NCBI GenBank assembly: GCA_017483195.1
Contig: JAFULR010000016.1
Location: 7,169-71,168 of the forward strand
Source: Clostridia bacterium
GTDB taxonomy: Bacteria; Bacillota; Clostridia; Oscillospirales; CAG-272
Reading direction: 5' to 3'
Length of the DNA: 64,000 bases
The first letter of the stretch is position 1; each line of letters opens with the position of its first letter. The notes below the pieces were generated by a model. That model was given only the letters and a program-made list of their open reading frames with translations. It made no database searches and was not told the origin of the DNA. The position numbers and the translations under genes were made by a program. Positions 12,731-43,951 of the stretch are shown piece by piece.

Positions 12731-12894
12731 CGAGAAAAAAGTAGGCAAAAAAGCTTTAATCAGCTTCGCGCAATACCAAAAAAGTTAGTGCGAACAAATT
12801 GGACTTAATATCACTTTAATAAGAGGTAACAAAAACCTTTTTACAGAGCTTCGCGCAATATCCATATAGCTTGTGCGAGCATATAATATTACTA

Positions 12895-13013
12895 ATATCT
12901 TTGGGGATTGGTGAAATTCCATACCGACAGTTAAAGTCTGTGAACTCTTGAAGATCAAGAGCCGAGTGGGTGAAATTCCTGCACCGACGGTAAAGTCCGG
13001 ATGAGAAAAGATA
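12895..13013 (+). ncRNA. FMN riboswitch (RFN element)
   Basis: ATCTT.GGG..GGTGAAATTCC..ACCG...AAAGTC...GGTGAAATTCC..CCGACGGTAAAGTCCGGATGAGAAAAGAT matches the RFN consensus; lies upstream of an ECF S component; terminator-like hairpin at about 13044-13072. Confidence 0.92.
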
Positions 13014-13113
13014 AAATATCAGGATGGGCGCAGTCCATCCAATCCCCGACAGCTTTGTTTGTCGGATTTTTTTATCTTTCCTCTTAAATTCTATTTTAAG
13101 AAGGAGAAAATCT

Positions 13114-15191: not shown

Positions 15192-15235
15192 GACAAAGTT
15201 AAAAATTTAAAAGATATATGCCAAGATCATATATG

Positions 15236-15357
15236 ACTTATCCAGAGTGGCGGAGGGACGTGCCCTATGAAACCACAGCAACCTACCGATAATGCGGCAA
15301 GGTGCTAATTCCCGAGAGATGAGGTTATTCTGTGCCCTCGCTCTGCGAGGCTTTTTT
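15236..15357 (+). ncRNA. SAM-I (S-box) riboswitch with terminator
   Basis: CTTATCCAGAG.GG.GGAGGGAC..GCCCTATGAAACC..GCAACC...GGTGCTAATTCC...GATGAG, then a CCTCGC/GCGAGG hairpin with a T-run; upstream of metK; P4 is very short. Confidence 0.92.
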
Positions 15358-27106: not shown

Positions 27107-28969
27107 ATGAAAATAAAAAATACTACCGTCCTTAAATCGGTTGAAAAGCCCGGAAGATACAGCGCGGGCGAATTCGGACAGATAATCAAGGACAAAAAAG
27201 ATATAAAGGCGAGATGGGCATTCTGCTTTCCCGATACATATGAGATAGGAATGTCAAATCTCGGTGTGCGCATCCTTTACGGCGCGCTCAATTCCGAGCC
27301 GGATATCTGGTGCGAGAGAGCCTACGCTCCGTGGACGGATATGCAGGAACAAATGCGCAAGCACGGCATTCCTCTTACGGCTCACGAAAGCGGAGACCCT
27401 TTGCGTGAATTTGATATTATCGGTATCACGCTCCAATATGAGATGTGCTATACCACGACCTTGCAGATGCTCTCGCTTGCGGGAATACCGCTTTATGCAA
27501 AGGATAGGGGTGAGGATCTTCCGATAATCATAGGCGGAGGCCCCTGCGCTTATAACCCCGAGCCCATAGCGGATTTCTTTGACTGCTTCTCAATAGGTGA
27601 GGGCGAGGAAAATCTTGTTGAATTTACCCGTCTTTACATTGAGATGAAGGAGAACGGCACATACACAAAGAAGGACTTTTTACACAGAGCAGCCGCTGAG
27701 ATAGGCGGTATATACGTGCCGTCGCTCTATGACGTAAAATATAATGCCGACGGAACGATAGAGTCATATACGCCCGTCTGTGATGATGTTCCGAAGCGCG
27801 TGCTTAAGCGTATCATGACCGATATGGATAAGGCTTATTTTCCAAAGAAGGTGGTAATGCCCTATATCGAAACGGTACACGACCGCATTATGCTCGAGGT
27901 GTATCGCGGATGTATCAGAGGCTGCCGCTTCTGTCAGGCGGGAATGGTTTACCGCCCGGTAAGAGAAAAAACACCCGAGGTTCTTTGTGAGCAGGCGAAA
28001 TGCCTTTACGAAGCAACGGGATATGATGAGATCTCTCTGTCATCCCTTTCTATAAGCGATTATTCAAGGCTTTCCGAACTTACGGACGGATTGCTTGAGT
28101 GGACGGACGATAATATGGTAAGCCTTTCGCTTCCTTCACTCCGCGTTGATAGCTTTACAAAGGAGCTTATGGACAAGATTTCCACCGTAAGAGCCGGCTC
28201 GCTTACGTTTGCGCCCGAGGCGGGAAGTCAAAGGCTTCGCGACGTAATTAATAAAAACGTGTGTGAAGCGGATCTTCTTCGTGCGGTAAACGTGGGATTT
28301 GATGCTGGCAAGACCTCCTGCAAGCTCTACTTTATGATGGGCTTGCCCACCGAAACGTACGAGGACCTTGACGGTATTGCCGAGCTTGCAAAGGCGGTAA
28401 TTGAGGCTTATTATCAAAATCCCAACAGACAAAAGGGAAGAGCGCCGTCAGTAACGGTCAGCGTTTCCTGCTTTATTCCCAAGCCCTTCACTCCGTTCCA
28501 ATGGGAGGCTCAGGATTCTATGGAAACGTTCGTTGAAAAGCAGAAATATCTTGAAAGCAAGATAACGGACAGAAAGATCCGTTACGTCCACCACGACGCG
28601 CGCGTTTCACACGTTGAAGCAATTTTAGCTCGCGGTGACCGTCGTCTTGCTCCCGCACTCGCTCTTGCTTGCGAGAGAGGATTTTGCTTTGACGCGTGGG
28701 ATGAGTTCTTCCGCTATGACGAATGGATAAAGGTGTTTGACGATTGCGGAATAGATTATAATTTCTATTCAAACCGCGTTTGGGGAGAGGACGAGGTGCT
28801 TCCGTGGGACGTTATCGACTGCGGAGTTACCAAGGAATTCTTGAAGCGCGAGAGAAAGAACGCATATATCGAAAAGACAACGCCATCCTGCCGTGAGAAA
28901 TGCTCCGGCTGTGGCGTGAATAAGCTTGGAGGTGAGAGAACGTGGTGTCCGAAAAAGACAGAGGCTTAA
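27107..28969 (+). CDS. TIGR03960-type B12-binding radical SAM protein
   Basis: VEKPGRY, FPDTYEIGMSNLG, RGCIRGCRFCQAG, FAPEAGSQRLR, FIPKPFTPFQW. Confidence 0.93.
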   Translation: MKIKNTTVLKSVEKPGRYSAGEFGQIIKDKKDIKARWAFCFPDTYEIGMSNLGVRILYGALNSEPDIWCERAYAPWTDMQEQMRKHGIPLTAHESGDPLREFDIIGITLQYEMCYTTTLQMLSLAGIPLYAKDRGEDLPIIIGGGPCAYNPEPIADFFDCFSIGEGEENLVEFTRLYIEMKENGTYTKKDFLHRAAAEIGGIYVPSLYDVKYNADGTIESYTPVCDDVPKRVLKRIMTDMDKAYFPKKVVMPYIETVHDRIMLEVYRGCIRGCRFCQAGMVYRPVREKTPEVLCEQAKCLYEATGYDEISLSSLSISDYSRLSELTDGLLEWTDDNMVSLSLPSLRVDSFTKELMDKISTVRAGSLTFAPEAGSQRLRDVINKNVCEADLLRAVNVGFDAGKTSCKLYFMMGLPTETYEDLDGIAELAKAVIEAYYQNPNRQKGRAPSVTVSVSCFIPKPFTPFQWEAQDSMETFVEKQKYLESKITDRKIRYVHHDARVSHVEAILARGDRRLAPALALACERGFCFDAWDEFFRYDEWIKVFDDCGIDYNFYSNRVWGEDEVLPWDVIDCGVTKEFLKRERKNAYIEKTTPSCREKCSGCGVNKLGGERTWCPKKTEA

Positions 28970-29706
28970 AGCCCTATTCAAAAACAGACTATCCGATGCT
29001 CACCGAGCCAAAATTCATAAGATTTAAATTTCGCAAGGTAGGGGATCTGCAGTTTATCTCACACCGCGATCTTCTCAGCGTAATGACCAAGATATTTGTA
29101 AGGGCAAAGGCTCCCCTTTGGTATTCCAAGGGCTTCAATCCTCACGCAAAGCTTATATTTGCTCTCCCTCTTTCCGTGGGTGTACAGAGTGAATGTGAGT
29201 ATCTTGACGTAAGAGTTGAGAGGGCTATTCCACCTTCTGAGCTTATGGAGCATATAAATGCCGAGGTGACCGAGGAGCTTAGATTTATTGATGCGTATTA
29301 TCCCGAGACCGCTCTTGAGGATATATATTGGGCGGAGTATGATTTTGAGATCGGGACCGAGGGCGCCGATGAAAATATGGCAAGCGAGATCGAAGGATTG
29401 CTCACCGCAGAGCAGGTGATAATCCTCAAAAAAGCCAAGGACAAGCACGAAAAGATCTACTTTAAGGAGGTCGATATTGCGCCCTACGTTCGCGACGTGA
29501 GTGTGAAATTCGACGGTGGATTGATAAAAATAAACGCAAAACTTTCCGCATCCATAAATCAGACTCATCCGCATATCAATCCCGAAAATATCGTTACGAT
29601 GCTCAAGGACAAGCTCGGAATTTTGTCGGGCGACGTTATGCGTGAGCAGTATGATATAATAAGAACGAAAATTTATTTTGAGGACGGTAAAACGGACTTC
29701 AGATAA
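28942..29706 (+). CDS. Radical SAM-linked protein (TIGR03936/DUF2344)
   Basis: FISHRDL...YSKGFNPH...ALPLSVGVQS.CEY; overlaps the radical SAM gene. Confidence 0.9.
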   Translation: MVSEKDRGLKPYSKTDYPMLTEPKFIRFKFRKVGDLQFISHRDLLSVMTKIFVRAKAPLWYSKGFNPHAKLIFALPLSVGVQSECEYLDVRVERAIPPSELMEHINAEVTEELRFIDAYYPETALEDIYWAEYDFEIGTEGADENMASEIEGLLTAEQVIILKKAKDKHEKIYFKEVDIAPYVRDVSVKFDGGLIKINAKLSASINQTHPHINPENIVTMLKDKLGILSGDVMREQYDIIRTKIYFEDGKTDFR

Positions 29707-32057: not shown

Positions 32058-32972
32058 ATGGGAACGGTAGTTACAACGTTGGCACAATGGTTTAAAGAAA
32101 ACCCAAAAATAGCTTCCGAGTGGGATAGCGCATCCAACACGCACCTTGATCCCGAAATTAACGGAATGGGCGTCAATCAAAAGGCATGGTGGATCTGCCC
32201 CAAGGGACACCGCTACGATGCGTGGGTATTTTCTCGCACTCTTAACGGCATGGGCTGTCCATACTGCAAGGGAAAAAGAACCTTAGCGGGCTTCAACGAT
32301 CTCGCCACCTTCCGCCCCGACGTTTTAGAAAAATGGGATTTTGAAAAAAATACTGATATCACACCTGCCGAAGTGACAGAATTTTCGCACAAAAAGGTCT
32401 GGTGGAAGTGCGAGAAGGGCCACTCTTGGCAAGCGCGAGTCGGAGCGATAACGAGCGTCAAGGAGGGCTTTTCGGGCTGTCCGTACTGCTCGGGAAAATA
32501 CGCTATCACGGGCGAAACGGATCTCGCAACGCGTTTTCCGGAGATCGCGGCGCAGTGGTGCTACGAGTTAAACGAGGAAACGCCTGACAAAGTGAGTTAC
32601 CAATCGCACAAATCGGTCTTTTGGAAATGCGAACGCGGCCACACCTGGCAGGCAAAGGTCGAATCACGAACGGGCAAACAAAAATCGGGTTGTCCCTATT
32701 GTTCGGGCTATCGACTTTGGACAGGGTACAATGACCTCGCAACGATGCGCCCAGACATAGCCGCAGAATGGAACCACGAGAAAAACGGTGATCTTAAGCC
32801 CACGGACGTATTAAGAAACTGCCGCGAACGCGTTTGGTGGAAATGCGCCGAGGGGCACGAGTGGCAAACGACAGTTCTTGCCCGCGCAAAGAAAAACGGA
32901 ACAAATTGCCCCATCTGCTCACGAAAGAAAAAGCCTTCCCCTGAGGGTAGCGAAGCGGCACGAGCGCAATGA
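32058..32972 (+). CDS. Zinc-ribbon repeat protein (DUF4379-like, 4 repeats)
   Basis: Four units of about 70 aa: (P)EIAAEW..EKN...P..V......VWWKC..GH.W...V..R.....CPxC. Confidence 0.85.
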   Translation: MGTVVTTLAQWFKENPKIASEWDSASNTHLDPEINGMGVNQKAWWICPKGHRYDAWVFSRTLNGMGCPYCKGKRTLAGFNDLATFRPDVLEKWDFEKNTDITPAEVTEFSHKKVWWKCEKGHSWQARVGAITSVKEGFSGCPYCSGKYAITGETDLATRFPEIAAQWCYELNEETPDKVSYQSHKSVFWKCERGHTWQAKVESRTGKQKSGCPYCSGYRLWTGYNDLATMRPDIAAEWNHEKNGDLKPTDVLRNCRERVWWKCAEGHEWQTTVLARAKKNGTNCPICSRKKKPSPEGSEAARAQ

Positions 32973-33074: not shown

Positions 33075-33432
33075 AAGGGGGCGAACACATAGCTAAATTC
33101 AGGTCAAAACACGGTTTTGCTCGCAAAACTTTGTCGTAAGACAAAGAGTGTTTTGATAGGCGCGCAAACCATACTCTCGATAACCGTTAAATTTCACGCG
33201 CGGCGTATGAGGGGAGCGAAATCCGCACGAATCAAGGTCAATAATCTAAACGTAACACGCGACCTTACAGGCACGTTTACATAAGCAAAAACAAAAATCC
33301 CGCGCAGTTTTTCGACCGCGTGCCCGACGCGTAAGCGTCATCCTCGAGCGAAAGCGAAGGATCTTGGGCGCGCATGCGAAAATCCGGCGCGGAGAACAAC
33401 AAATTTTTAAAAACATTACGGAGGTTATAGTT

Positions 33433-34044
33433 TTGTTTAACAGAAGAAACAAATTAATAGTTGTTGTAATTGCGGTTGTATTGATTGCAATTGCGGTGGT
33501 TGCTGCTGTTGTGCTTGTTAATGATACAAACAACAAAAAGGCAATTGGCATTGAAATAGTAACTGCACCTGTGGATCTTGAGTACTATAAGTACGATACT
33601 CTTGACCTTACGGGTTTGTCTGTAAAGCTCAGAAAGAACAATGCTCAGTATGACGAGATGATCGATGTTTCAAGGCTAACGGTTACTGGCTTTGACAGCA
33701 CGGTAGTTACCGAGAGACAGACGGTTACAGTTTCCTATGAGGGATTTACCGCAACGTTCGCAGTTAAGATTGAGGAGCTTCCCGCACCGAAGCCTGCGGT
33801 TGTTGGACTTAAACTCGAAATGGACGAGGGATATGAATTAAAGACAGAATACAAGGTTGGAGAAGCATTGGATCTGTCCCATATGTATTTGGTGGTTACT
33901 TATTCTGATGGAACGACTGCAAGAATCTCTGTAACACTTGATCATGTTTCAGGATTTGATAGTCGCAGACCTGCAACGGAGCAGAGAATTAAGGTATCCT
34001 ACGGAGGCTTGTTTACAAAATATTATGTAAACATCGTGGAATAA
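33433..34044 (+). CDS. Membrane-anchored protein with two bacterial Ig-like (Big_3-type) domains
   Basis: TTG start after GGAGG; N-terminal TM helix; two repeats of EY..G..LDL.G/H..........V.GFDS......Q.V.VSY.G. Confidence 0.8.
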   Translation: MFNRRNKLIVVVIAVVLIAIAVVAAVVLVNDTNNKKAIGIEIVTAPVDLEYYKYDTLDLTGLSVKLRKNNAQYDEMIDVSRLTVTGFDSTVVTERQTVTVSYEGFTATFAVKIEELPAPKPAVVGLKLEMDEGYELKTEYKVGEALDLSHMYLVVTYSDGTTARISVTLDHVSGFDSRRPATEQRIKVSYGGLFTKYYVNIVE

Positions 34045-34136
34045 AAATAAATTACAGAAGTCAGTAAACCGTGGCCGTGAAAACGACACGATTACATAAA
34101 TTAATTAGTTAATAAACATTACGGAGGAAAAAAGTA

Positions 34137-37100
34137 ATGAGAAACAACAAACAGAAGGGTTTCACCCTTGTTGAGTTGCTGGTCGTTATCGCGATTTTAG
34201 CGATACTTGCGACTGTTGCGACTGTTGGATACACTGCTTTTATTAAGCAGGCGCACGTATCTAACGATGAGAACGTAGCAACACAGCTCAACCATTTTAC
34301 GGATGCGCTTAAAGCGGATTCGAATAGCCCAGTCTACGAAAAATTGCAGGCGAACGGCGGCAAGATAACCGTAGACAATGTTCGTGATATTACTGACTAC
34401 ATTCTCACAGATAGCGGACTTGGTACTCTCGTTCCTCAGTCTGCAGATTATGGATATCACTTCTATTTCGACCTTGATGCACAGGAATACGTGCTTATCG
34501 GCGACGACGATCCCAGAATGTTGTCTATGTCTCCTCTTGGCAGACTTTTTGCAGGTGCGGCTGAGTACTCACTCACAATACACCCCGAGCAGTGCCTCAC
34601 CAAGGATAGCAGATACTTCCTTGTTGAAACAGGAACAGAGCTTGCTCGTCTTGTAGCTGAATTCAAGGAAATTTCCGACAAAGACAAATTGAGCGCATAC
34701 CACACATCCGTTTCTACTTATGAAACAGATGCTAGAGGTAAGCTCGTAGGTCTTATCGCATTGGTTGAAAGAACTGTTTTCACAACTAATGTAGGACATT
34801 TGGTTGTTGATACTACAAAGAATCACGATCACTTGTTTGTTCAGAAGGATTTGGTAGTTTCTAATAAAAATAACCACGAAATTACAGGTCTTGACGGCGT
34901 TACTGTTATCGACAAAACACATCCTTTGGTAGCTTTGCAGAGTGAACAGGTTATTGAAATCAGCATCAAGGATGACGTTACTCTTGCAACTCATTCTTGG
35001 TGGTTTGCAAACCCCGAGAAGGCTACTCTTGTAATTAAGGGTATTGCAGATCCTGCAACGCTTGCTACAAGAGTTGACATTGACTTTACAAATGCTAAAT
35101 TCATCCTTGATGATGGTAAGACTTATACATATAAGAATGGCTCCATTATGGATGCTGACGGAAATTCTACACCCGTAGAAGGAAAGAACAAGGTAAAGGA
35201 TTTCACTGTTACTTGTGACGGTGTGGAAGCAGGCGTAGTTGCATTCGGTAACTCCGGTAACAATACATACAGCTTGTACATCCATTACAACAAAACAGAA
35301 GCCTTCAACTTGGGCGCTACAGGATTCAAGGGCACAGTTTCTGATGTAAACATTTCCGGTACAGATGATGTCAAATTCGAGAAAATCTCCGGTTCTTCTA
35401 AATTGACAGTAACTGAAGACGGTAAGGTTCAGGTAACAGGTTACCCTGAAACAAATGACCTTACAGCAAAAATCAAAGTAACATGTGGCGTAGCTGAGCC
35501 TAAGACAATTGATGTTACTATTGTAAGAGTAACCAACGCTTCCGTTCCTTTCAATGGTAGCACATTGACTATGAGCGATAACAATAATACATTGACAATC
35601 AGCTACACAGGAAACAAGGTATTTACATTTGGTACTGCTTCTTTTGCAGACAACTCCTCCAATACAGGTATAAATATTGTAGCTGCAGACAAACAAGTGA
35701 CAATTACTCATGGTGCAGGTGACGTATTTACTATCAGCGACAATAAAACACTCACACTTAACAAGTTTGAGGGCACACAGACTTTCACAATTACAGTTGG
35801 TAAGATGAGCAAGACATTTACTGTAACTGTAGAAGACAACTCTAAGAATCCCTTTGACATTAAGTGGGATACCGATAAAGACGCAGGTATTAAGTACACA
35901 ACAAGCGGTGAAGGCGAGAATGCAGTAAAGATCCCCTCTTTCCTCTACCGTGTTGGTAACGATAATGCGATTACACTCGGCACTCTCTTCAATACTATAG
36001 AAGAGTTTAGCGGAAATGCAACACTTACTATTTACGATGCTTCTCAGAAGTCAGGAACCACTTATAAAGAAATCAATACTTCCAACCCCAATTTGAACGC
36101 ATCCTACGATGATGCTAAGACACTTTCTTACTCTGATTGGGCAAGCAAGAAAATCACTTTTAAGGGTGAAGGCGTAGCTATTATCGAAATTACTTACAAC
36201 AAGCAGACTGTTAAGGTTGCTGTTGAGGTTGTTGATGGTTACAATGTGTTGACATATGGTGATCTCTCTGCTAAGAATGCAAGCAATCAGACATACAAGA
36301 ACTTTGTTCTTCAAAATGATATTGAAATGCCCTCTGAGGGAGCTTTGAATTTGCAAGGCAATTTCTTTGGCAATGGATATACATTTGATATTACAAAGGG
36401 CAAGTACCACTATACCGAGGGTGGTCGCAATGGTATTATTACACTTTACGGTGGCGCACTTATGGATAACGTTGTAATTATCGGTGATAAGTACACAACA
36501 ATTTGTGACGCACATAAAAATGCTTATTATGTAGCTGCAATTGGTTTGGAGGGCGGTATACTCTCTAACTCCTATGTTTATGGCTGTCAGACACCCGTAC
36601 GTTCTACAGGTGGCAAGATCATCAATACCGTTCTTGATGGTGGCAGATTCGCAAACTTGATTTGTAAGGGTGGTAAAACAACTGTTGAAGACATCACAAC
36701 AATCAATCAAGCTACTGACAAATACTGTGGTTTGGGTATTGTAGTTGAGGGAGGTGCAACCTTGAATGTAGATGGTTCACTTACACAGCACAACTGGATT
36801 TCTTCAAGCGACAAAGCATTGATCACTGACAATACCATATCCACATTTTTTGATTTGATGTTTGGTATCAGTGAAATTAAATTCAATCATAGCAACGACT
36901 CTTGGGTTAACACAGGTATATTCCTTAAGGATGCGACAGCTATTGTAATTAATGCTCCTTCCAATTATATTAAAGTTGCAAAATCTTATTCTTCCATGGG
37001 TATTACCGCTACAGGTTACGCATACAGCTTCAATAATAGTGTATATAGCTTTACAGGCAAAGTAACTCCCAATGCGTATACTCCCGTAACACAGGGCGCT

Positions 37101-38696
37101 TATGCTCCTAAGCTTGAATGGACATACCCCGAAGGATACAATTCGACAACTAATACAATTACTATTAAAGTAGATGAAGGTGCAGTACTTGAGTTTGATC
37201 CCAACTTCTTGCTTGCATCTAAATACGGTAACAATTTGCAGGTTGTAGTAAAGGTAAACGGTCAGGATTATACAGGCAACAAGATTGCAATTAATAGCAC
37301 TGCTGATAACACATTTACAATCACTTACTCCTATACCGATACTTATGTTCATGATATGCTTGGTGCTGGAGTAGTAACATCCATCAACTATGTAGATACG
37401 GTTGAAGTTTCAGTTCAGGTTATTAAGCAAGTTGGTGCTCCCGACTTTACATTCCACTACGGAACAAATGGTAGTGCAAGTGCAGGTTCTCCTCACGTAA
37501 CACAACCCTCTACTACCGTATCAGGTATAGTTGTTACAGCAGGTGCTGATAAATACATTATGCCCGATGTATCCGCTACACAAGATAACAAGATCGGTTC
37601 TACAACTGTTAATAACGTTACTATCTACTACCCCATTGTTGATGGTATTAACGTTCGTTCCGGTGCTTCAACTGACTATGACTTCTTGAGATACTATCCC
37701 ATCTTCAAGGGTGTAACAATTTCGGATGATACTCGCTCCTTTGGTTACACAACTACAAAGGAAATGCCCTCATACTTCACTTGGGTATCCGCTTCAATAG
37801 ATAGTGGTAACTCTTCTTCTGGTTTAGCAACAGATAAAGAGACGGGTGCTATACTTTATACATGTTACAACGACACTTACTTGTCTCGTTATCAGACACA
37901 AAAAGGTAATACCGAAGGCGGCGGAACATCTGTGGTTAAGTACAGCTATCAGGCGGTTGATGGTAATACTTACTACTACTATATTGGTTATAGATTCTAT
38001 GATGAAGACGAAGGCGGTGCTTGTGTAACAGGTGACACGCTTGTAACACTCGCTGACGGTACACAGAAGGAAATTCGAGACGTAACTGCTGAAGATATTC
38101 TCCTTGTATGGAATCACTTCACAGGTAAGTACGATACAGTTCCTGCTGCAATCATCTTCAATCACGGATATGATTACAACACAGTTATTAAGCTTAACTT
38201 TAGCGATGGAACGCAGGTTAAGATGATTAACCTCCACCAGTTCCTCGATGCAGATCTTAATAAGTACGTTACTATCGATTCTGCTAATGTTCAGGATTAT
38301 GTTGGACACAACTTCGTAAAGCAGGATGGCGATTCTTACACAACAGTAACTCTCGAATCCTATGAAATTTCCGAAGAGTATATCGAAGCTTACGGTATCA
38401 TTTCCGCACTTCACTACAACTTCTTTGTTGAAGGCATGTTCTCAACCGACTTTAAGAAAGACGATTATGACCTCTTCAACTATTTCACAATGGGTGAAAA
38501 CATGATGTTCGATGCAGAACAGATGCAGAGCGATATCGACACATACGGTTTGTACACATATGAAGACTTCGCTGAATACCTCACATATGAGCAGTTCGTT
38601 GGATTCAATGTACAGTACTTCAAGATTGCAGTTGGCAAGGGATATTACACATATGAAGGTATTCTTGATTTGATTGCTACATATCTTGGCAAATAA
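34137..38696 (+). CDS. Giant type IV pilin-like protein (1519 aa) with a C-terminal Hint (Hedgehog/intein-like) domain
   Basis: Class III signal KQKG|FTLVELLVVIAILAILA; T/N/V/G-rich beta-type body; Hint blocks GGA|CVTGDTLVTLADG (Cys1296), INLHQFL and HYNFFVEGMFS; 83-aa tail. Confidence 0.88.
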   Translation: MRNNKQKGFTLVELLVVIAILAILATVATVGYTAFIKQAHVSNDENVATQLNHFTDALKADSNSPVYEKLQANGGKITVDNVRDITDYILTDSGLGTLVPQSADYGYHFYFDLDAQEYVLIGDDDPRMLSMSPLGRLFAGAAEYSLTIHPEQCLTKDSRYFLVETGTELARLVAEFKEISDKDKLSAYHTSVSTYETDARGKLVGLIALVERTVFTTNVGHLVVDTTKNHDHLFVQKDLVVSNKNNHEITGLDGVTVIDKTHPLVALQSEQVIEISIKDDVTLATHSWWFANPEKATLVIKGIADPATLATRVDIDFTNAKFILDDGKTYTYKNGSIMDADGNSTPVEGKNKVKDFTVTCDGVEAGVVAFGNSGNNTYSLYIHYNKTEAFNLGATGFKGTVSDVNISGTDDVKFEKISGSSKLTVTEDGKVQVTGYPETNDLTAKIKVTCGVAEPKTIDVTIVRVTNASVPFNGSTLTMSDNNNTLTISYTGNKVFTFGTASFADNSSNTGINIVAADKQVTITHGAGDVFTISDNKTLTLNKFEGTQTFTITVGKMSKTFTVTVEDNSKNPFDIKWDTDKDAGIKYTTSGEGENAVKIPSFLYRVGNDNAITLGTLFNTIEEFSGNATLTIYDASQKSGTTYKEINTSNPNLNASYDDAKTLSYSDWASKKITFKGEGVAIIEITYNKQTVKVAVEVVDGYNVLTYGDLSAKNASNQTYKNFVLQNDIEMPSEGALNLQGNFFGNGYTFDITKGKYHYTEGGRNGIITLYGGALMDNVVIIGDKYTTICDAHKNAYYVAAIGLEGGILSNSYVYGCQTPVRSTGGKIINTVLDGGRFANLICKGGKTTVEDITTINQATDKYCGLGIVVEGGATLNVDGSLTQHNWISSSDKALITDNTISTFFDLMFGISEIKFNHSNDSWVNTGIFLKDATAIVINAPSNYIKVAKSYSSMGITATGYAYSFNNSVYSFTGKVTPNAYTPVTQGAYAPKLEWTYPEGYNSTTNTITIKVDEGAVLEFDPNFLLASKYGNNLQVVVKVNGQDYTGNKIAINSTADNTFTITYSYTDTYVHDMLGAGVVTSINYVDTVEVSVQVIKQVGAPDFTFHYGTNGSASAGSPHVTQPSTTVSGIVVTAGADKYIMPDVSATQDNKIGSTTVNNVTIYYPIVDGINVRSGASTDYDFLRYYPIFKGVTISDDTRSFGYTTTKEMPSYFTWVSASIDSGNSSSGLATDKETGAILYTCYNDTYLSRYQTQKGNTEGGGTSVVKYSYQAVDGNTYYYYIGYRFYDEDEGGACVTGDTLVTLADGTQKEIRDVTAEDILLVWNHFTGKYDTVPAAIIFNHGYDYNTVIKLNFSDGTQVKMINLHQFLDADLNKYVTIDSANVQDYVGHNFVKQDGDSYTTVTLESYEISEEYIEAYGIISALHYNFFVEGMFSTDFKKDDYDLFNYFTMGENMMFDAEQMQSDIDTYGLYTYEDFAEYLTYEQFVGFNVQYFKIAVGKGYYTYEGILDLIATYLGK

Positions 38697-38757
38697 ACTA
38701 ATACATTTCTCACGCCACCCCCACGGGTGGCGTGGGTTAATTACAAAAGGAAAAATT

Positions 38758-39405
38758 ATGGCAAAATTAAAATCGAGAAACTCGAACAGAAAAATTATAA
38801 TCCTTGTTGCCTGTGTTGTGTTAGCACTAGTAATAGGTGCAACAGTGGCTGTTTTGCTTGTGCAGGAACAAAATCACGGCGAGCAGATTAGCCATATTAA
38901 TATCAGCTCTATGCCCAATGATAGGGAATACTATCTTGACGAAGCACTTGATATAACAGGATTATCCGTTCAGGTTGTTTTGAATAATGGTTCTTATTAT
39001 TTTGTTTCTGCTGATGAAGTGACTGTAACCGGATTTGACAGTTCAAAAGTTAAAGAAGAGTTGGTTTTAACTGTAAGATATCAGGGATTTACAGATACAT
39101 TCACGGTATCTGTTGAAGCGTTTCCTAAGCCTAAGCCCACACTTGTTTATATAGAGGTAAAGGACTATAAACCAACTTATACATGGGCTGAATGGCAGAG
39201 TAATTGGATAAATCTTGATGGAACATATATTGAGTGTCATTATAGCGACGACAGCACATATAGAGTTACATTGACTACAGCTCGTATCATTGACGGTCTC
39301 GAAGGCATAAACGGCCCCGGCACGTATACACTTACTGTTTACTATGACGAATATGAAAGCGGAGTATTTTGTACTACGACCTTCACTATTACAATAACAA
39401 ATTAA
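38758..39405 (+). CDS. Membrane-anchored bacterial Ig-like (Big_3-type) protein, paralog of 33433-34044
   Basis: N-terminal TM helix; EYYLDEALDITGLSV...VTVTGFDSS...LTVRYQGFT..F.V followed by PKPKP. Confidence 0.8.
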   Translation: MAKLKSRNSNRKIIILVACVVLALVIGATVAVLLVQEQNHGEQISHINISSMPNDREYYLDEALDITGLSVQVVLNNGSYYFVSADEVTVTGFDSSKVKEELVLTVRYQGFTDTFTVSVEAFPKPKPTLVYIEVKDYKPTYTWAEWQSNWINLDGTYIECHYSDDSTYRVTLTTARIIDGLEGINGPGTYTLTVYYDEYESGVFCTTTFTITITN

Positions 39406-39406
39406 T

Positions 39407-40183
39407 ATGCCAAGATTCAGTTTAACACACATAATATTTTTACTCTGCGTAGTGGCGTTTTTGGCGGGCACGATGTGGCTAATATCGAAGCTCAATCGCA
39501 AGTGGCAGAACGTGATGATCGTCATTGGAGCGCTTCTTTGCGCGGGCGGAATTTTCTTCCGCTACGGTATGGGGCTTTCCTTTGAGGACGGTTTCACTTG
39601 GAAAACACTCGGTATGGAGATGCTTCAGGTGTGCAATTTCAATTTCATTTTGGTTCTGCTTATGCTGATTCCGAAGTTTGAGCTTGCGCGACAGTACAGC
39701 ATATTTTTCTCGATGTTCGCCGCGTCCACAACGCTCGTTAGCCTTCAGTCGAATTGGGCGACGATGAATTGGTACGACCTCACGATTATGAACTCGCTTA
39801 TCAATCACGTTTTCATTATCGCAGTTCCGCTCTGGATGCTCTCCGCGCGCCGCTTGAAGCCCCGCAAGGAATATATTTGGACGGTTGCGGGCAGTGTTTT
39901 CATTTATATGACGGTGGTTGCGATAATCGTAACGGTGCTTATGAAAAACGGCGTAATAACCGATCCCACGCCGCATTATTCGTTTATTTACGATACGTAC
40001 GGCATTGAGGTGCTTGATTTCCTTTATTGGCTCATTCCGTGTCCCTATTTTTATCTTTATCCTCTCGGCCCGCTTATGGTAGCATTCTTTTACTTCCTTG
40101 CGTGGGCATTCAGAAACTATGAGGTGAAACCTTATTGGGAACCGGAACGCGATACAAACAAAGACAACCCCTTTGAGGAGTAA
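39407..40183 (+). CDS. YwaF/TMEM164-like integral membrane protein
   Basis: N-terminal FSLTHI, LQVCN (compare LPLHLC), INH, HYSFI and PCPYFYL in a multi-TM protein. Confidence 0.65.
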   Translation: MPRFSLTHIIFLLCVVAFLAGTMWLISKLNRKWQNVMIVIGALLCAGGIFFRYGMGLSFEDGFTWKTLGMEMLQVCNFNFILVLLMLIPKFELARQYSIFFSMFAASTTLVSLQSNWATMNWYDLTIMNSLINHVFIIAVPLWMLSARRLKPRKEYIWTVAGSVFIYMTVVAIIVTVLMKNGVITDPTPHYSFIYDTYGIEVLDFLYWLIPCPYFYLYPLGPLMVAFFYFLAWAFRNYEVKPYWEPERDTNKDNPFEE

Positions 40184-40522: not shown

Positions 40523-40918
40523 ATGAAAACTAAAGGCTTTACACTCGTTGAGTTGCTTGTTGTTATTGCTATCCTCGCAATCCTTGCAACAGTTTCCGTA
40601 GTTGGTTACACATCTTACATTAAGAATGCAAATGAAAGCGTAGCTCTTCAGGAAATGACTCAGGTTAGATCCTCTATCAAGGCTGAAGACATCCTCAATG
40701 GTAACTTTGCTATTTCTGGTGGAAAAGTTGCTCTTACAACAGGAAAAGATACTTCCAATGAAGAACTCGCTGCATTTGTTACTGAGTTGAACAAAACTTT
40801 GAAGAATGGTCAGGTACAGACTATAGCAGATCAATCTGCTAATATCGTATACAAATCTAAAGACGGAACAATTACTGCTACTTGGGATTTGGTAACTGAC
40901 GCTATCACTGTTCAGTAA
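40523..40918 (+). CDS. Type IV pilin (131 aa)
   Basis: MKTKG|FTLVELLVVIAILAILATVSVVGY; RBS AGGAG. Confidence 0.92.
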   Translation: MKTKGFTLVELLVVIAILAILATVSVVGYTSYIKNANESVALQEMTQVRSSIKAEDILNGNFAISGGKVALTTGKDTSNEELAAFVTELNKTLKNGQVQTIADQSANIVYKSKDGTITATWDLVTDAITVQ

Positions 40919-40951: not shown

Positions 40952-41356
40952 ATGAAAACTAAAGGCTTTACACTCGTTGAGTTGCTTGTTGTTATTGCTA
41001 TTCTTGCAATCCTTGCAACTGTATCCGTAGTTGGTTATACATCTTACATTCAGAATGCTAATGATAGCGTAGCTGTTCAGGAACTTTCTCAGCTTCGTGA
41101 TTCTGCTCTTGCTGTTGACTTGACAAAGTCCGAGGGTGGTAATATGGACGGTAAGGTATCCGTTGGCGAATTTAAGGAAGCTTTAACAAATGCAGGCATT
41201 ACATTTAATGAGAATGTATTTGTTATTACTCACGAAAATAAAGAGGGAGTAGATGCTGCAAAGCAGATTGTTACAAAAGTAGTTTACAAGCACTCCAATG
41301 GTGGCGTAGCTACTTGGACAGTTTCTGGCGACAAGGTTGAAGCAGGAGAAAAATAA
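40952..41356 (+). CDS. Type IV pilin (134 aa)
   Basis: First 33 aa identical to the upstream pilin; divergent C-terminus. Confidence 0.92.
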   Translation: MKTKGFTLVELLVVIAILAILATVSVVGYTSYIQNANDSVAVQELSQLRDSALAVDLTKSEGGNMDGKVSVGEFKEALTNAGITFNENVFVITHENKEGVDAAKQIVTKVVYKHSNGGVATWTVSGDKVEAGEK

Positions 41357-41418
41357 TCCAAACTATTCCAATTAATACCGCTCGCGATCTCGCAATCAAT
41401 CGCGGTGACGGAATATAT

Positions 41419-41454
41419 AAAACCCTCGAGCTACGGCTCGAGGGTTTTTCTTTT
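41419..41454 (+). terminator. Terminator after the pilin pair
   Basis: AAAACCCTCGAGC-tacg-GCTCGAGGGTTTTT. Confidence 0.8.
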
Positions 41455-41469
41455 GCGGCAGCAATCCAC

Positions 41470-42540
41470 TAAGCCTTCTCCAGCGGGAGAAGGTGGATGC
41501 GAGCAACGGAAATTAACGATTTTTGCTTGCCACAGGCGAGCAGACGGATGAGGTGTGAAGAACAAGTGACTCCTCATCCGCTTCGCGTACGCTCAGCACC
41601 TTCTCCCACAGGAGAAGGCTATTTGTGTGTTTGCACAAGCTCGTAGGGGTCGGCGGTCTCGCCTGCGGGCTCGGTCCACTCGCGTTCTAACAGTCCCCCG
41701 GACTGTTATTCATTGCGCTCGTGCCGCTTCGCTACCTCGACGACCCGTGTTTGTGGAAAAAGTAACTTCACCTTTGGAAAGTCACAAAGACTCCTTCGTA
41801 GATCCCATCGTCGCTGTCGCTCCTCGGTTTTGCATCGGCTCGCTTGCGCTCCCTCAGCAAAACTTCGCTACGCTCAGGATGACGTATAGCCGTTTTGATG
41901 GCGCGCCACTATTGTTTTGGATAACCGATTAATATTACGCGCGGCGCACAAACTCGTAGGGGCGCGCTGTGCGCGTCCGTATCCGTGGGAAAGTAACTTT
42001 GTCTTTGAAACTCTCCCACCACCACTTCGTGGTCCCCCTCCCTCGACAGAGGGAGGCGAGTTTTCTGTTGTTGCCCTCACTCGTAGGGGTCGGCGCCCCC
42101 GACGACCCGTGTTTGTGGAAAAAGTAACTTCACCTTTGGAAAGTCACAAAGACTCCTTCGTAGATCCCATCGTCGCTGTCGCTCCTCGGTTTTGCATCGG
42201 CTCGCTTCGGCTGATTGTAATTATACGGTCAAAAGTGCAGGGCTCCCTCTGCAAAACTTCGCTACGCTCAGGATGACGTCTCTGAACGATATTTGCGGTA
42301 GTGCGATTATTAGCTCGGGTCGTCGGGGTAGCGAAGCGGCACGAGCGCAATGAATAACAGTCAGGGGGACTGTTAGAACGCGAGTGGACCGAGCCCGCAG
42401 GCGAGACCGCCGACCCCTACACAAGTAAGTGCGCAGCCGTCAATTTTGCACTTTGCATTTTGTATTTAGCGGGTGCACGGAGTGCCCCCCTACGAGAGTG
42501 AGAGCGCAGCCGTCAATTTTGCACTTTGCATTTTGCATTT
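41470..42540. repeat. Non-coding cluster of REP/BIME-like and MITE-like repeats
   Basis: GTAG REPs at 41643, 41956, 42083 and on the minus strand ending at 42420 and 42493; 108-bp direct repeat 41738-41845/42100-42207; 105-bp inverted pair 41643-41747/42316-42420; 32-bp repeat at 42431 and 42504. Confidence 0.85.
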
Positions 42541-42560
42541 AGTGCGGTGACGGAATATAT

Positions 42561-42590
42561 AAAACCCTCGGGAGATCCCGAGGGTTTTTA
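42561..42590. terminator. Terminator for the MATE gene (bidirectional)
   Basis: AAAACCCTCGGGA-ga-TCCCGAGGGTTTTT. Confidence 0.75.
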
Positions 42591-42595
42591 TTTGC

Positions 42596-43951
42596 TTAAA
42601 GCTCGATATTTTGCTGTTCTATCCGCTTCATTTCTTTTCTGAAAACGAGCAGAATTACCGCAGAAATCACGCACACCGACAAAACCGTAAGGGGGGCATT
42701 GAGCCACAATCCCGTGAGCCCCAAGCCGTATAGCGCGAAAATAAATATCATTGGGAAAATAAACGCCGTCCCAACTGAAATAAGGGTCGCGTAAAGCGAT
42801 TTTTCAACCGCCGTCATATAGCTCTGCGTTGCAAAAGCAAACCAGAACATAAGCTTTGATACTGCAAAAATTTTAAGCGCCTTTACCGCCTCGTTCAAAA
42901 AAGCGGTGTCCGTGCTTGTTGTGAAAAGGGAAACGAGAACGTCGGGAATAAACCACATCATAGCAAACGAAACGACCGAAACCGCCGCGCTCGCTCCAAA
43001 CGTCCATTTTGTGATCTTCTTGACTCGATCAAAGCGGCGCGCGCCCCAGTTATATCCGATCGCGGGCTGGAGTGAATCGCAAATTCCGTAGATCAAGGGC
43101 TGGATTATCTCGCCAACGTACATTTGTATTCCGTAAATTGCTACCGCACTGTCGCCACCCATGGAAATGAGCGCCTTGTTCATTGCGATCGAGGTTATTC
43201 TGCCCGAAACGTTATTAAGAAATATGGGCATTCCGCATTGGATTATCTTTTTCGTGGTTTTTACCGAGAAGCGCGGTTTGGTTATTTTCAACTGCATTTT
43301 GCCGATCGCGAACAGTGTGAATGCTATCAATACCGATGCGCCGAAGCAAATGCACGGAGCAAGCGCTGCGCTCCAGATACCCCATCTGAAAACAAAAAGG
43401 AATAAAAATTCAAGCAAGATGGTGGAAATACTTGTGCCGATATTGAGCCACATGCTAAGCTTTACCTTGCCTGAGATCCTTAAATAGTTATCAAAAGCAA
43501 ACGCCGCGGGGGATATGGGTGAGAAGAACGCATAAACGCGAATATATTCAACTCCGAGTCTTTGAGCCTCGGGGCTTGCGTCAAGAAAGTCGAGAATGAC
43601 GGGTGCGCCGAACCAAAGAACGAGTCCCATAAGCGCGCCTGCTCCCGTTATCATAAGAAGCGCGCAGGTGAATATGTTATTAGCTTCCTTTTCATCCTGC
43701 CTGCCGAGAGCTATTGAGATCGGCACTGCCGAGCCCACCGCCACAAGGTCGGAAAGGGAAAAGCTGATTATTACGAAGGGGAAGGCGATATTTATTGCCG
43801 CAAACGCGGTATCCCCAAGTATGTTTCCTATAAATATACCGTCAAACAAACCGAAAATGGCGGAGGCGAGCATACTTACAGCACCCGGTATTGCGGCTAT
43901 AAAGAACAGTCTCCACACAGTCGTTTTTAAGAAAAATTCCTTATGATCCAT
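42596..43951 (-). CDS. MATE family efflux transporter
   Basis: AIPG...FGLFDGIFIG..LG..AFAAINI.FP, LQPAIGYNWGARRFDRVK; about 12 TM. Confidence 0.93.
   Translation of the reverse strand: MDHKEFFLKTTVWRLFFIAAIPGAVSMLASAIFGLFDGIFIGNILGDTAFAAINIAFPFVIISFSLSDLVAVGSAVPISIALGRQDEKEANNIFTCALLMITGAGALMGLVLWFGAPVILDFLDASPEAQRLGVEYIRVYAFFSPISPAAFAFDNYLRISGKVKLSMWLNIGTSISTILLEFLFLFVFRWGIWSAALAPCICFGASVLIAFTLFAIGKMQLKITKPRFSVKTTKKIIQCGMPIFLNNVSGRITSIAMNKALISMGGDSAVAIYGIQMYVGEIIQPLIYGICDSLQPAIGYNWGARRFDRVKKITKWTFGASAAVSVVSFAMMWFIPDVLVSLFTTSTDTAFLNEAVKALKIFAVSKLMFWFAFATQSYMTAVEKSLYATLISVGTAFIFPMIFIFALYGLGLTGLWLNAPLTVLSVCVISAVILLVFRKEMKRIEQQNIEL

Follow-up and report, generated by a model that had tools for sequence, protein, structure and literature searches.

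The window analysed here, a stretch of 64,000 nucleotides (nt) on contig JAFULR010000016.1 of an uncultured ruminant-gut Clostridia bacterium (CAG-272; assembly GCA_017483195.1, 1.34 Mb in 29 contigs, 88.6% complete), carries on its forward strand a gene for a giant type IV pilin-like protein of 1,519 amino acids (aa), which ends in a Hint domain and a small helical tail that we refer to jointly as the cassette. In the cassette a catalytic fold that is already known appears in a lineage that is new and very large, joined to a novel and obligate partner domain and found here on a giant pilin. The gene and its parts are arranged as follows.

34123..34127, forward strand: Shine-Dalgarno-like GGAGG, 9 nt 5' of the ATG, read in the sequence
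34137..38696, forward strand: whole open reading frame (protein P0001), 1,519 aa plus stop, from its translation
34137..34160, forward strand: prepilin leader MRNNKQKG with a predicted cut after Gly8, from the sequence and the N_methyl and TIGR02532 models
34161..34235, forward strand: hydrophobic pilin alpha1-N segment, Phe9 to about Val33, with Glu at +5, from the sequence
34236..38000, forward strand: body, residues 34-1288, blank in Pfam and partly like other cassette carriers
38001..38021, forward strand: linker of acidic and small residues, DEDEGGA, residues 1289-1295, with Ala1295 at position -1, from the sequence
38022..38024, forward strand: codon of Cys1296, Hint residue 1 and predicted nucleophile, from conservation and the homology boundary
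38022..38447, forward strand: Hint domain, residues 1296-1437, from the AlphaFold2 (AF2) model, Foldseek, the profile comparison with PDB sequences, and conservation
38448..38693, forward strand: tail domain, residues 1438-1519, six short helices, from an AF2 model of the tail alone and conservation

The protein begins MRNNKQKG/FTLVELLVVIAILAILATV (the slash marks the predicted cut), with Gly at -1, Phe at +1 and Glu at +5 ahead of a hydrophobic stretch, which is the class III (prepilin) signal that a sequence-only reading of this DNA had claimed. Pfam N_methyl matches residues 4-28 (E 1.9e-10; 40.3 bits, the cut-off being 21.2), TIGR02532 also matches the N-terminus (E 2.3e-8), and the first 21 residues of the pilin segment, counted from Phe9, are identical in both small pilins encoded downstream. 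Type IV pilus genes of the same genome adjoin each other on a separate contig (C9, 49.6-53.0 kb), where they encode an A24 prepilin peptidase (Peptidase_A24, 36.9 bits), a PilC-like platform protein with two T2SSF domains in one 432-aa frame, and a PilB-like ATPase (T2SSE, 438.8 bits). Taken together, the motif, the pilin-bearing neighbours and the peptidase, PilC-like and PilB-like genes make the prepilin reading sound, and by its sequence the giant protein is a prepilin-type, type IV pilin-like surface protein. Residues 30-1275 match no Pfam family; from about residue 600 to 1275 the body is 26-36% identical to the bodies of other cassette-bearing proteins.

At the other end of the protein, the motifs quoted in the earlier reading were located at their places: DEDEGGA/C1296VTGDTLVTLADG (block A), INLH1367QFL (block B) and AYGIISALHYNFFVEGMFS (block F-like). 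NCBIfam intein-containing models match residues 1296-1386 and 1295-1427 (E 5.5e-6 to 3.8e-4), NCBIfam intein_Nterm matches at E 1e-3, under its cut-off, and a direct search with the protein's own C-terminal 244 aa gave Pfam Intein_splicing at E 0.09 and PDB entry 4o1r at E 0.79 as the best matches. Direct sequence searches were thus near blank, and the predicted fold and a family profile were needed to identify the domain. An AlphaFold model of residues 1276-1519, built on an alignment of 66 relatives, scored a predicted local distance difference test (pLDDT) of 92.5 and a predicted TM-score (pTM) of 0.88, with a beta domain running from Cys1296 to about residue 1437 and helices thereafter. 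A Foldseek search with the cassette model gave 64 PDB chains at E <= 1e-3, the best 48 of which were all intein, bacterial intein-like (BIL) or Hedgehog Hint structures, with target-normalised TM-scores up to 0.82; they include the Ssp DnaB mini-intein (E 9.1e-10), the NpuDnaB intein (TM-score 0.82), Tetrahymena BIL2 and the Clostridium thermocellum BIL 2lwy (both 0.81), and Hedgehog 1at0 (0.74). The family profile, compared with PDB sequences, likewise matched Tetrahymena BIL2 best (E 2.9e-6) over the full Hint length, pairing Cys1296 with BIL2 Cys1 (an Ala mutant in the crystal), His1367 with the catalytic His69, and His1343 with His48.

Conservation follows the same outline. Homology to relatives begins sharply at Cys1296, after a variable linker of small residues in which position -1 is Gly, Ser, Pro, Thr or Ala in 219 of 245 family members. 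The Cys1296 position holds Cys in 298 of 299 ungapped rows from 304 family modules (and in 245/245 of another family set), the block-B His1367 is kept in all 304 modules and His1343 in 267, and His1391, Phe1393 and Asn1428 are likewise conserved; His B:10 is described as the most conserved residue of inteins (PMC4031507). Residues 1296-1437 form a genuine Hint domain, beyond chance on both sequence and modelled fold, of about 142 aa where the earlier reading had counted about 141. Its C-terminus reads EGMFSTD (EGM[LF][ST] in the family) and, as had been noted from the letters, has no His-Asn: Thr, Asp or Ser occupies the Asn position, and the terminal His142-Asn143 of BIL2 align with Thr1437-Asp1438. 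The lack of a terminal His-Asn, and of block G, excludes protein splicing. Nor does the protein have a C-extein with a +1 nucleophile; it stops behind the tail. An N-terminal acyl shift is chemically plausible on the modelled fold, and would rely on only two of the usual catalytic residues.

The tail comprises about 83 aa (residues 1438-1519), and the acidic and aromatic composition first ascribed to it was borne out in what is modelled as a separate helical domain. Modelled alone with AF2, it is predicted to fold independently into six short helices (pLDDT 91.9). Its core motifs, D-I-x-x-Y-G-L-Y-T-Y-[ED]-[DE]-F and V-G-K-G-x-x-T, contain positions that rank among the most conserved of the whole cassette (Gly1471 in 304, Tyr1470 in 303, Tyr1475 and Gly1502 in 301, and Asp1466 and Lys1496 in 297 of the 304 modules), and median identity across 212 proteins is 62% for the tail and 60% for the Hint domain. 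The tail-only model found no match in the PDB by Foldseek (best E 5.8), and none of 48,161 chains reached Z >= 5 by VIA-align (best Z 2.7), which does not by itself prove a new fold; the tail hit no Pfam family and found no usable match in the ESM Atlas. Of 24 tail matches in 399 genomes of the same class, 23 lie inside full cassettes, and Hint and tail therefore constitute one unit. The 24th, a weak match in a 337-aa reading frame without a cassette (genome G279) that looks glycosyltransferase-like by eye, was dismissed as chance. At the level of sequence, the tail is an obligate partner of the Hint domain, not found apart from it in the 399-genome class sample.

The cassette is common in databases and patchy among genomes. 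A HMMER search of 1.84 billion cluster representatives (50% identity) returned 3,086 proteins at E <= 1e-3 and 1,354 at E <= 1e-30, an index of 5.8 billion proteins gave 926 matches among proteins of 835-2,659 aa, and cassette loci numbered at least 411 when each species was represented by a single genome. The 79 loci kept for study all come from metagenome-assembled genomes; nearly all belong to records from ruminant and faecal samples with the labels Clostridia, Eubacteriales, Oscillospiraceae, Faecousia, Christensenellaceae or Lachnospiraceae; one locus labelled uncultured Alistipes (L037) sits on a 3.2-kb contig that may be mis-binned, and another (L075) is labelled Acholeplasmatales. Within the class, 15 of the 399 genomes and 8 of 217 genera carry the cassette; the genome of the window has one copy, and none of 14 other genomes of its order has any. 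In one genus (g90) the giant genes that bear the cassette stand two or three in tandem (genomes G208, C5:117-129 kb; G127, C64:12-21 kb; G098; G383; G337). DNA matching the locus occurs in goat and bovine gut metagenomes of several studies, with no RNA run among those listed.

The proteins that bear the cassette are diverse. Simple regular-expression motifs assigned the N-termini of 304 carriers to prepilin (42), camelysin/SipW-type (51), lipobox-like (14), other hydrophobic (74) or no obvious signal (32), the other 91 being shorter than 700 aa and mostly fragments. Pfam anchors are all N-terminal: three proteins have dockerin at residues 27-94, one has SLH at 41-81 and one a camelysin domain at 5-127. 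In 289 of the 304 modules no more than 12 residues lie between the end of the cassette and the C-terminus. In one subgroup (P0102, P0105, P0109, P0111, P0112, P0115, P0229 and P0134) an acidic linker and a 220-360-aa run of repeated beta-rich domains follow the tail, so that the cassette is internal. An ordinary-sized pilin is the carrier in P0312 (421 aa), in which a 194-aa pilin, a Ser/Gly linker and the cassette follow one another. This survey of N-terminal domains, which found prepilin, lipoprotein, camelysin-type, dockerin and SLH carriers with the same Hint and tail, partly revises the view of the cassette as a feature of pilins: it does stand on this pilin, but the pilin is one carrier among many, and non-pilin surface proteins carry it too.

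The cassette is much better conserved than the bodies that bear it. The body of one carrier, P0005, is 31.5% identical to that of the giant protein over 99% of its length, whereas their Hint domains are 99.3% and their tails 87.8% identical, a disparity between Hint and body which suggests that the cassette was recently exchanged or converted between carrier genes that are very divergent. Five further carriers (P0008, P0010, P0013, P0015 and P0020) have bodies 27.5-30% and Hint domains 82-87% identical to those of the giant protein. On a tree of 181 cassettes, built quickly with FastTree only, the prepilin label requires 16 changes, of which branches with good support force 10 or more; shuffled labels require 38 on average. 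These changes indicate that the cassette moved repeatedly between carrier types, and on this sequence comparison it behaves as a mobile unit, shifted between carrier types at least 10 times.

The following neighbours of the giant gene lie on its strand.

33364..34044, forward strand: upstream neighbour with an N-terminal transmembrane (TM) segment and two Big_3 domains, paralogue of the downstream TM-Big_3 gene
38674..39405, forward strand: TM and Big_3 gene, probable start ATG near 38758, kept downstream of giant-pilin orthologues at 5 loci
39407..40183, forward strand: TMEM164-family integral membrane protein, Pfam PF14808 at E 2e-10
40523..40918, forward strand: small type IV pilin (MKTKG/FTLVELL...), from the sequence
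40952..41356, forward strand: second small type IV pilin, from the sequence

The TMEM164-family gene is syntenic at L010, L017, L018, L035 and L042 (45-57% identity), and human TMEM164 is an acyltransferase; the pair it forms with the downstream TM-Big_3 gene is limited to the 5 loci with orthologous giant pilins. Around the 79 cassette loci there is no conserved partner gene, no neighbouring family occurring at more than 7, and we therefore conclude that no dedicated partner is encoded nearby. No sortase (PF04203) was found in the genome of the window, which is 88.6% complete. A reading of the cassette as a sortase substitute for cell-wall anchoring was set aside, as the recognisable anchors of the family are N-terminal. 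The G+C content of the giant gene (0.39-0.42) is slightly under that of its neighbours and gives no usable sign of transfer. Positions 41400-42600, which separate the pilin genes from the gene that follows, are rich in repeats (148-nt direct repeats, 88% identical; 68-nt tandem-like repeats; and an inverted repeat of 105 nt, 98% complementary, whose arms are separated by 568 nt), are relatively rich in G+C (0.49-0.51), and contain open reading frames that look spurious. Elsewhere the window holds an FMN riboswitch (12893-13016, forward strand, 103.7 bits), a SAM riboswitch (15235-15325, forward strand, 70.2 bits), a B12-binding-type radical SAM protein (Radical_SAM_N2, E 1.5e-62) with a DUF2344 gene overlapping behind it (27107-29706), and a 304-aa protein with four DUF4379 treble-clef zinc-finger repeats (32058-32972; E 1.8e-71).

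From the sequence and the models, we consider the product of the gene to be, probably, a modular surface protein that resembles a type IV pilin and has a self-contained autoprocessing cassette of Hint and tail at its distal end. After export, prepilin peptidase would remove the 8-residue leader at Gly8/Phe9, as the motif and the peptidase gene suggest. Because of the Hint fold and the invariance of Cys1296 and His1367, we infer that Cys1296, helped by His1367, would turn the Ala1295-Cys1296 peptide bond into a thioester by an N-to-S acyl shift. With no C-terminal Asn and usually nothing downstream, splicing is impossible and only an outside nucleophile could resolve the thioester, whereupon the 224-residue cassette would be released and the mature protein would end ...DEDEGGA, its carboxyl free or modified. 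Type B BILs, which lack similarity in block G, catalyse cleavage uncoupled from splicing (PMC4031507). As the tail equals the Hint domain in conservation and was never met apart from it in the class sample, we read it as the element that may control or direct the resolution of the thioester, in the manner of the adduct-recognition region (ARR) of Hog domains. That Cys1296-dependent cleavage occurs at all seems likely to us, with some reserve; given cleavage, plain hydrolysis and tail-directed transfer of the thioester are roughly even.

Several observations weigh against a cassette that cuts itself off. The window's own cassette reached no Pfam family at E <= 0.01 and none of the Pfam Hint models. 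Pro occupies position -1 in 42/245 and 51/304 members, and in engineered-intein practice Pro at this position hampers N-terminal cleavage. Not all Hint domains share the block-B Thr and block-F Asp. Both count among the three residues that assist catalysis in class 1 inteins (PMC4031507), and neither is kept here, the B:7 position being Ile in 156 and Val in 107, and the F:4 position Ser in 135 and Gly in 128, of the 304 modules. Further sequence follows the cassette in 15 of the 304, about 7 of which have beta-rich domains of 220-360 aa, so that it is not always a disposable end piece. The absent Thr and Asp, the Pro at -1 in those 51 modules and the downstream domains would all suit an end domain that does not cleave, with Hint and tail together as a stable tip domain for binding or capping and the Cys serving some other purpose; since near-absolute conservation of Cys and His and a homology boundary that falls at the Cys are hard to explain structurally, we hold this to be quite unlikely. 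Release of the tail as an effector, in the style of polymorphic toxins with pretoxin-HINT domains, would fit the weak PT-HINT matches in 2 of 66 members and the large surface proteins with a C-terminal Hint that are typical of such systems (PMC3482391). It is, in our judgement, highly improbable, as a Hint domain that cleaves its own N-terminus leaves the tail joined to itself, the tail is conserved (median identity 62%) and not polymorphic, its 83 aa have no toxin-like fold match, and no immunity-like gene is conserved downstream (at most 7 of 79 loci).

A cassette that does cleave might serve the protein that carries it or the surface that this protein meets. In the former case it would help the beta-rich stalk to fold or oligomerise from its C-terminus and then remove itself by hydrolysis, as do the intramolecular chaperone domains (peptidase S74) at the C-termini of phage tail spikes; the layout is the same (N-terminal attachment, a long body read as beta-rich, and at the C-terminus a conserved module that cuts itself and is swapped between divergent bodies), and pilin-S74 fusions are among the modular pilin architectures listed in PMC8179133. 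No S74 match appears in the Pfam, Foldseek or VIA-align rows, although such lists give no proof of absence, and a predicted complex of three cassette copies, which bears on the idea of a trimerising chaperone, scored 0.00 and is evidence neither way. The presence of the cassette on the ordinary-sized pilin of P0312, and on bodies of unrelated composition, makes a body-specific chaperone role hard to generalise, and we regard an aid to folding or assembly as unlikely, though as a rival to be taken seriously. In the latter case a hydroxyl or amine held by the tail (of a glycan, a lipid, or a Lys of a protein or surface) would resolve the thioester and leave the end of the stalk covalently joined to this target, much as in Hedgehog cholesteroylation or the isopeptide formation mediated by BIL2. 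A Hint domain forms its thioester without an extra domain, yet here an obligate tail is as conserved as the Hint itself; the recognisable anchors (prepilin, camelysin/SipW-type, lipobox-like, dockerin and SLH) are N-terminal, which puts the cassette at the distal end; and Tetrahymena BIL2, the closest solved relative by sequence, is reported to conjugate its upstream domain to Lys and has in His48, the residue aligned with His1343, a Zn ligand (PMC8616854). There is precedent for covalent adhesion in the thioester-domain (TED) adhesins (PMC4450167) and for a Hint domain with an adduct-recognition region in Hog proteins (PMC2362128). On the other side, a tail this universal and this well conserved would lead one to expect a single shared acceptor, and no acceptor is known; nor does the tail show a fold that can be recognised as a binding one, or any likeness to the Hedgehog sterol-recognition region; and a distal tip is not general, as 74 of the 304 carriers have only a plain signal peptide and 32 no recognisable anchor. 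Tail-directed ligation is, on balance, a tentative proposal, possible though not probable.

Hint domains are used for protein splicing, for cholesterol transfer in Hedgehog, and for plain cleavage in bacterial BIL and pretoxin domains. What is new here is a very large Hint lineage, joined to a domain that is just as conserved and resembles no known fold; the pair has been added repeatedly to the far end of pilins, lipoproteins, and camelysin-type, dockerin and SLH proteins, a spread that points to a general step in the maturation or deployment of surface proteins in abundant rumen and gut bacteria. By analogy, and with the same tentativeness as the ligation reading itself, Hint and tail might be a self-contained ligation device, independent of both ATP and sortase and equivalent in bacteria to Hedgehog cholesteroylation. 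Were this so, the stalk would be covalently welded to its target as the cassette is shed, thousands of surface proteins of gut Clostridia would attach in a single shot, and the Hog-type design of Hint plus adduct recognition would not be a eukaryotic invention, which bears on the origin of Hedgehog autoprocessing. If the tail chooses the acceptor, it would embody a new natural protein-ligation chemistry with value as a tool; if there is cleavage only, the cassette would still be a new module by which type IV pilins and adhesins mature through autoproteolysis.

The sequence-only reading had taken this architecture to be uncharacterised, and we found no description of the cassette in the literature on bacterial intein-like and Hint domains with pilins, Clostridia, adhesins or thioesters, searched mainly at the level of titles and abstracts. 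A separate proteobacterial and myxobacterial group of C-terminal Hint-like proteins is mentioned in PMC2362128. Like the modular type IV pilins, of which Streptococcus sanguinis PilB and the pilin-S74 fusions are examples, the giant protein combines a pilin module with grafted functional modules, probably located at the filament tip (PMC8179133). It differs in its 1,519 aa, compared with the 860 residues of the 'most extreme case' (by additional domains) in that source, the main text of which contains neither 'intein' nor 'Hint'. With the TED adhesins of Gram-positive bacteria the cassette may share a function by analogy, namely the capture of a target nucleophile by a reactive thioester that a surface or pilus protein bears (PMC4450167). 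In TEDs, however, the thioester is internal, preformed between Cys and Gln, and set in a fold unrelated to Hint, whereas the thioester of the cassette would be a backbone acyl-shift intermediate in a reaction that sheds a domain.

Closer likenesses lie within the Hint superfamily. BILs of types A and B are, like the cassette, Hint domains found in secreted proteins of bacteria; they cleave instead of splicing, as the cassette probably does, and type B shares with it the lack of block-G similarity; type A has the C-terminal His-Asn that the cassette lacks, and the obligate conserved tail is absent from the BIL descriptions in the portions of the source used here (PMC4031507), nor is the cassette a Hint_2 by sequence. 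The BIL2 of Tetrahymena BUBL (PDB 6tmm and 6y75) is the best sequence-profile match among solved structures, with Cys1, His69 and His48 aligned, and it passes its N-terminal neighbour to Lys via a thioester (PMC8616854); it differs in keeping His-Asn, in lying between two ubiquitin-like domains, in its eukaryotic host and in having no tail domain. To the Hedgehog and Hog proteins, for which the concept of a Hint domain with an adduct-recognition region was formed (PMC2362128), the cassette is alike in lying at the C-terminus of secreted proteins as a Cys-first Hint after a small residue, with the block-B His, without splicing and with a helical region of 70-80 aa behind it. PF01079 (Hedgehog Hint) is the Pfam Hint model that the family matches most often, in 30 of 66 members at E <= 0.01, with 4 of 10 examined passing the 29.7-bit cut-off; the matches mostly cover profile positions 4-90 of 213 (once to 132, once to 159), and the window's own protein does not match this model. 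PF13403 (Hint_2), by comparison, matches 1 of 66 members at E <= 0.01, below its cut-off, and PT-HINT 2 of 66.

The label 'Hedgehog-like' given in the earlier reading holds at most for the Hint half, through the partial PF01079 matches of the family and the resemblance to 1at0, and fails for the tail, which is unlike any solved structure and has no similarity to the Hedgehog sterol-recognition region, the PF01079 alignments ending before it begins; the tail is acidic and not membrane-active as that region is, and its hosts are anaerobic gut bacteria. By sequence, the Hint domain of the cassette belongs to the Hint superfamily and is neither an intein nor a type A BIL, nor a Hint_2 or PT-HINT domain, and among the Pfam models it leans, over its N-terminal half only, to the Hint domain of Hedgehog.

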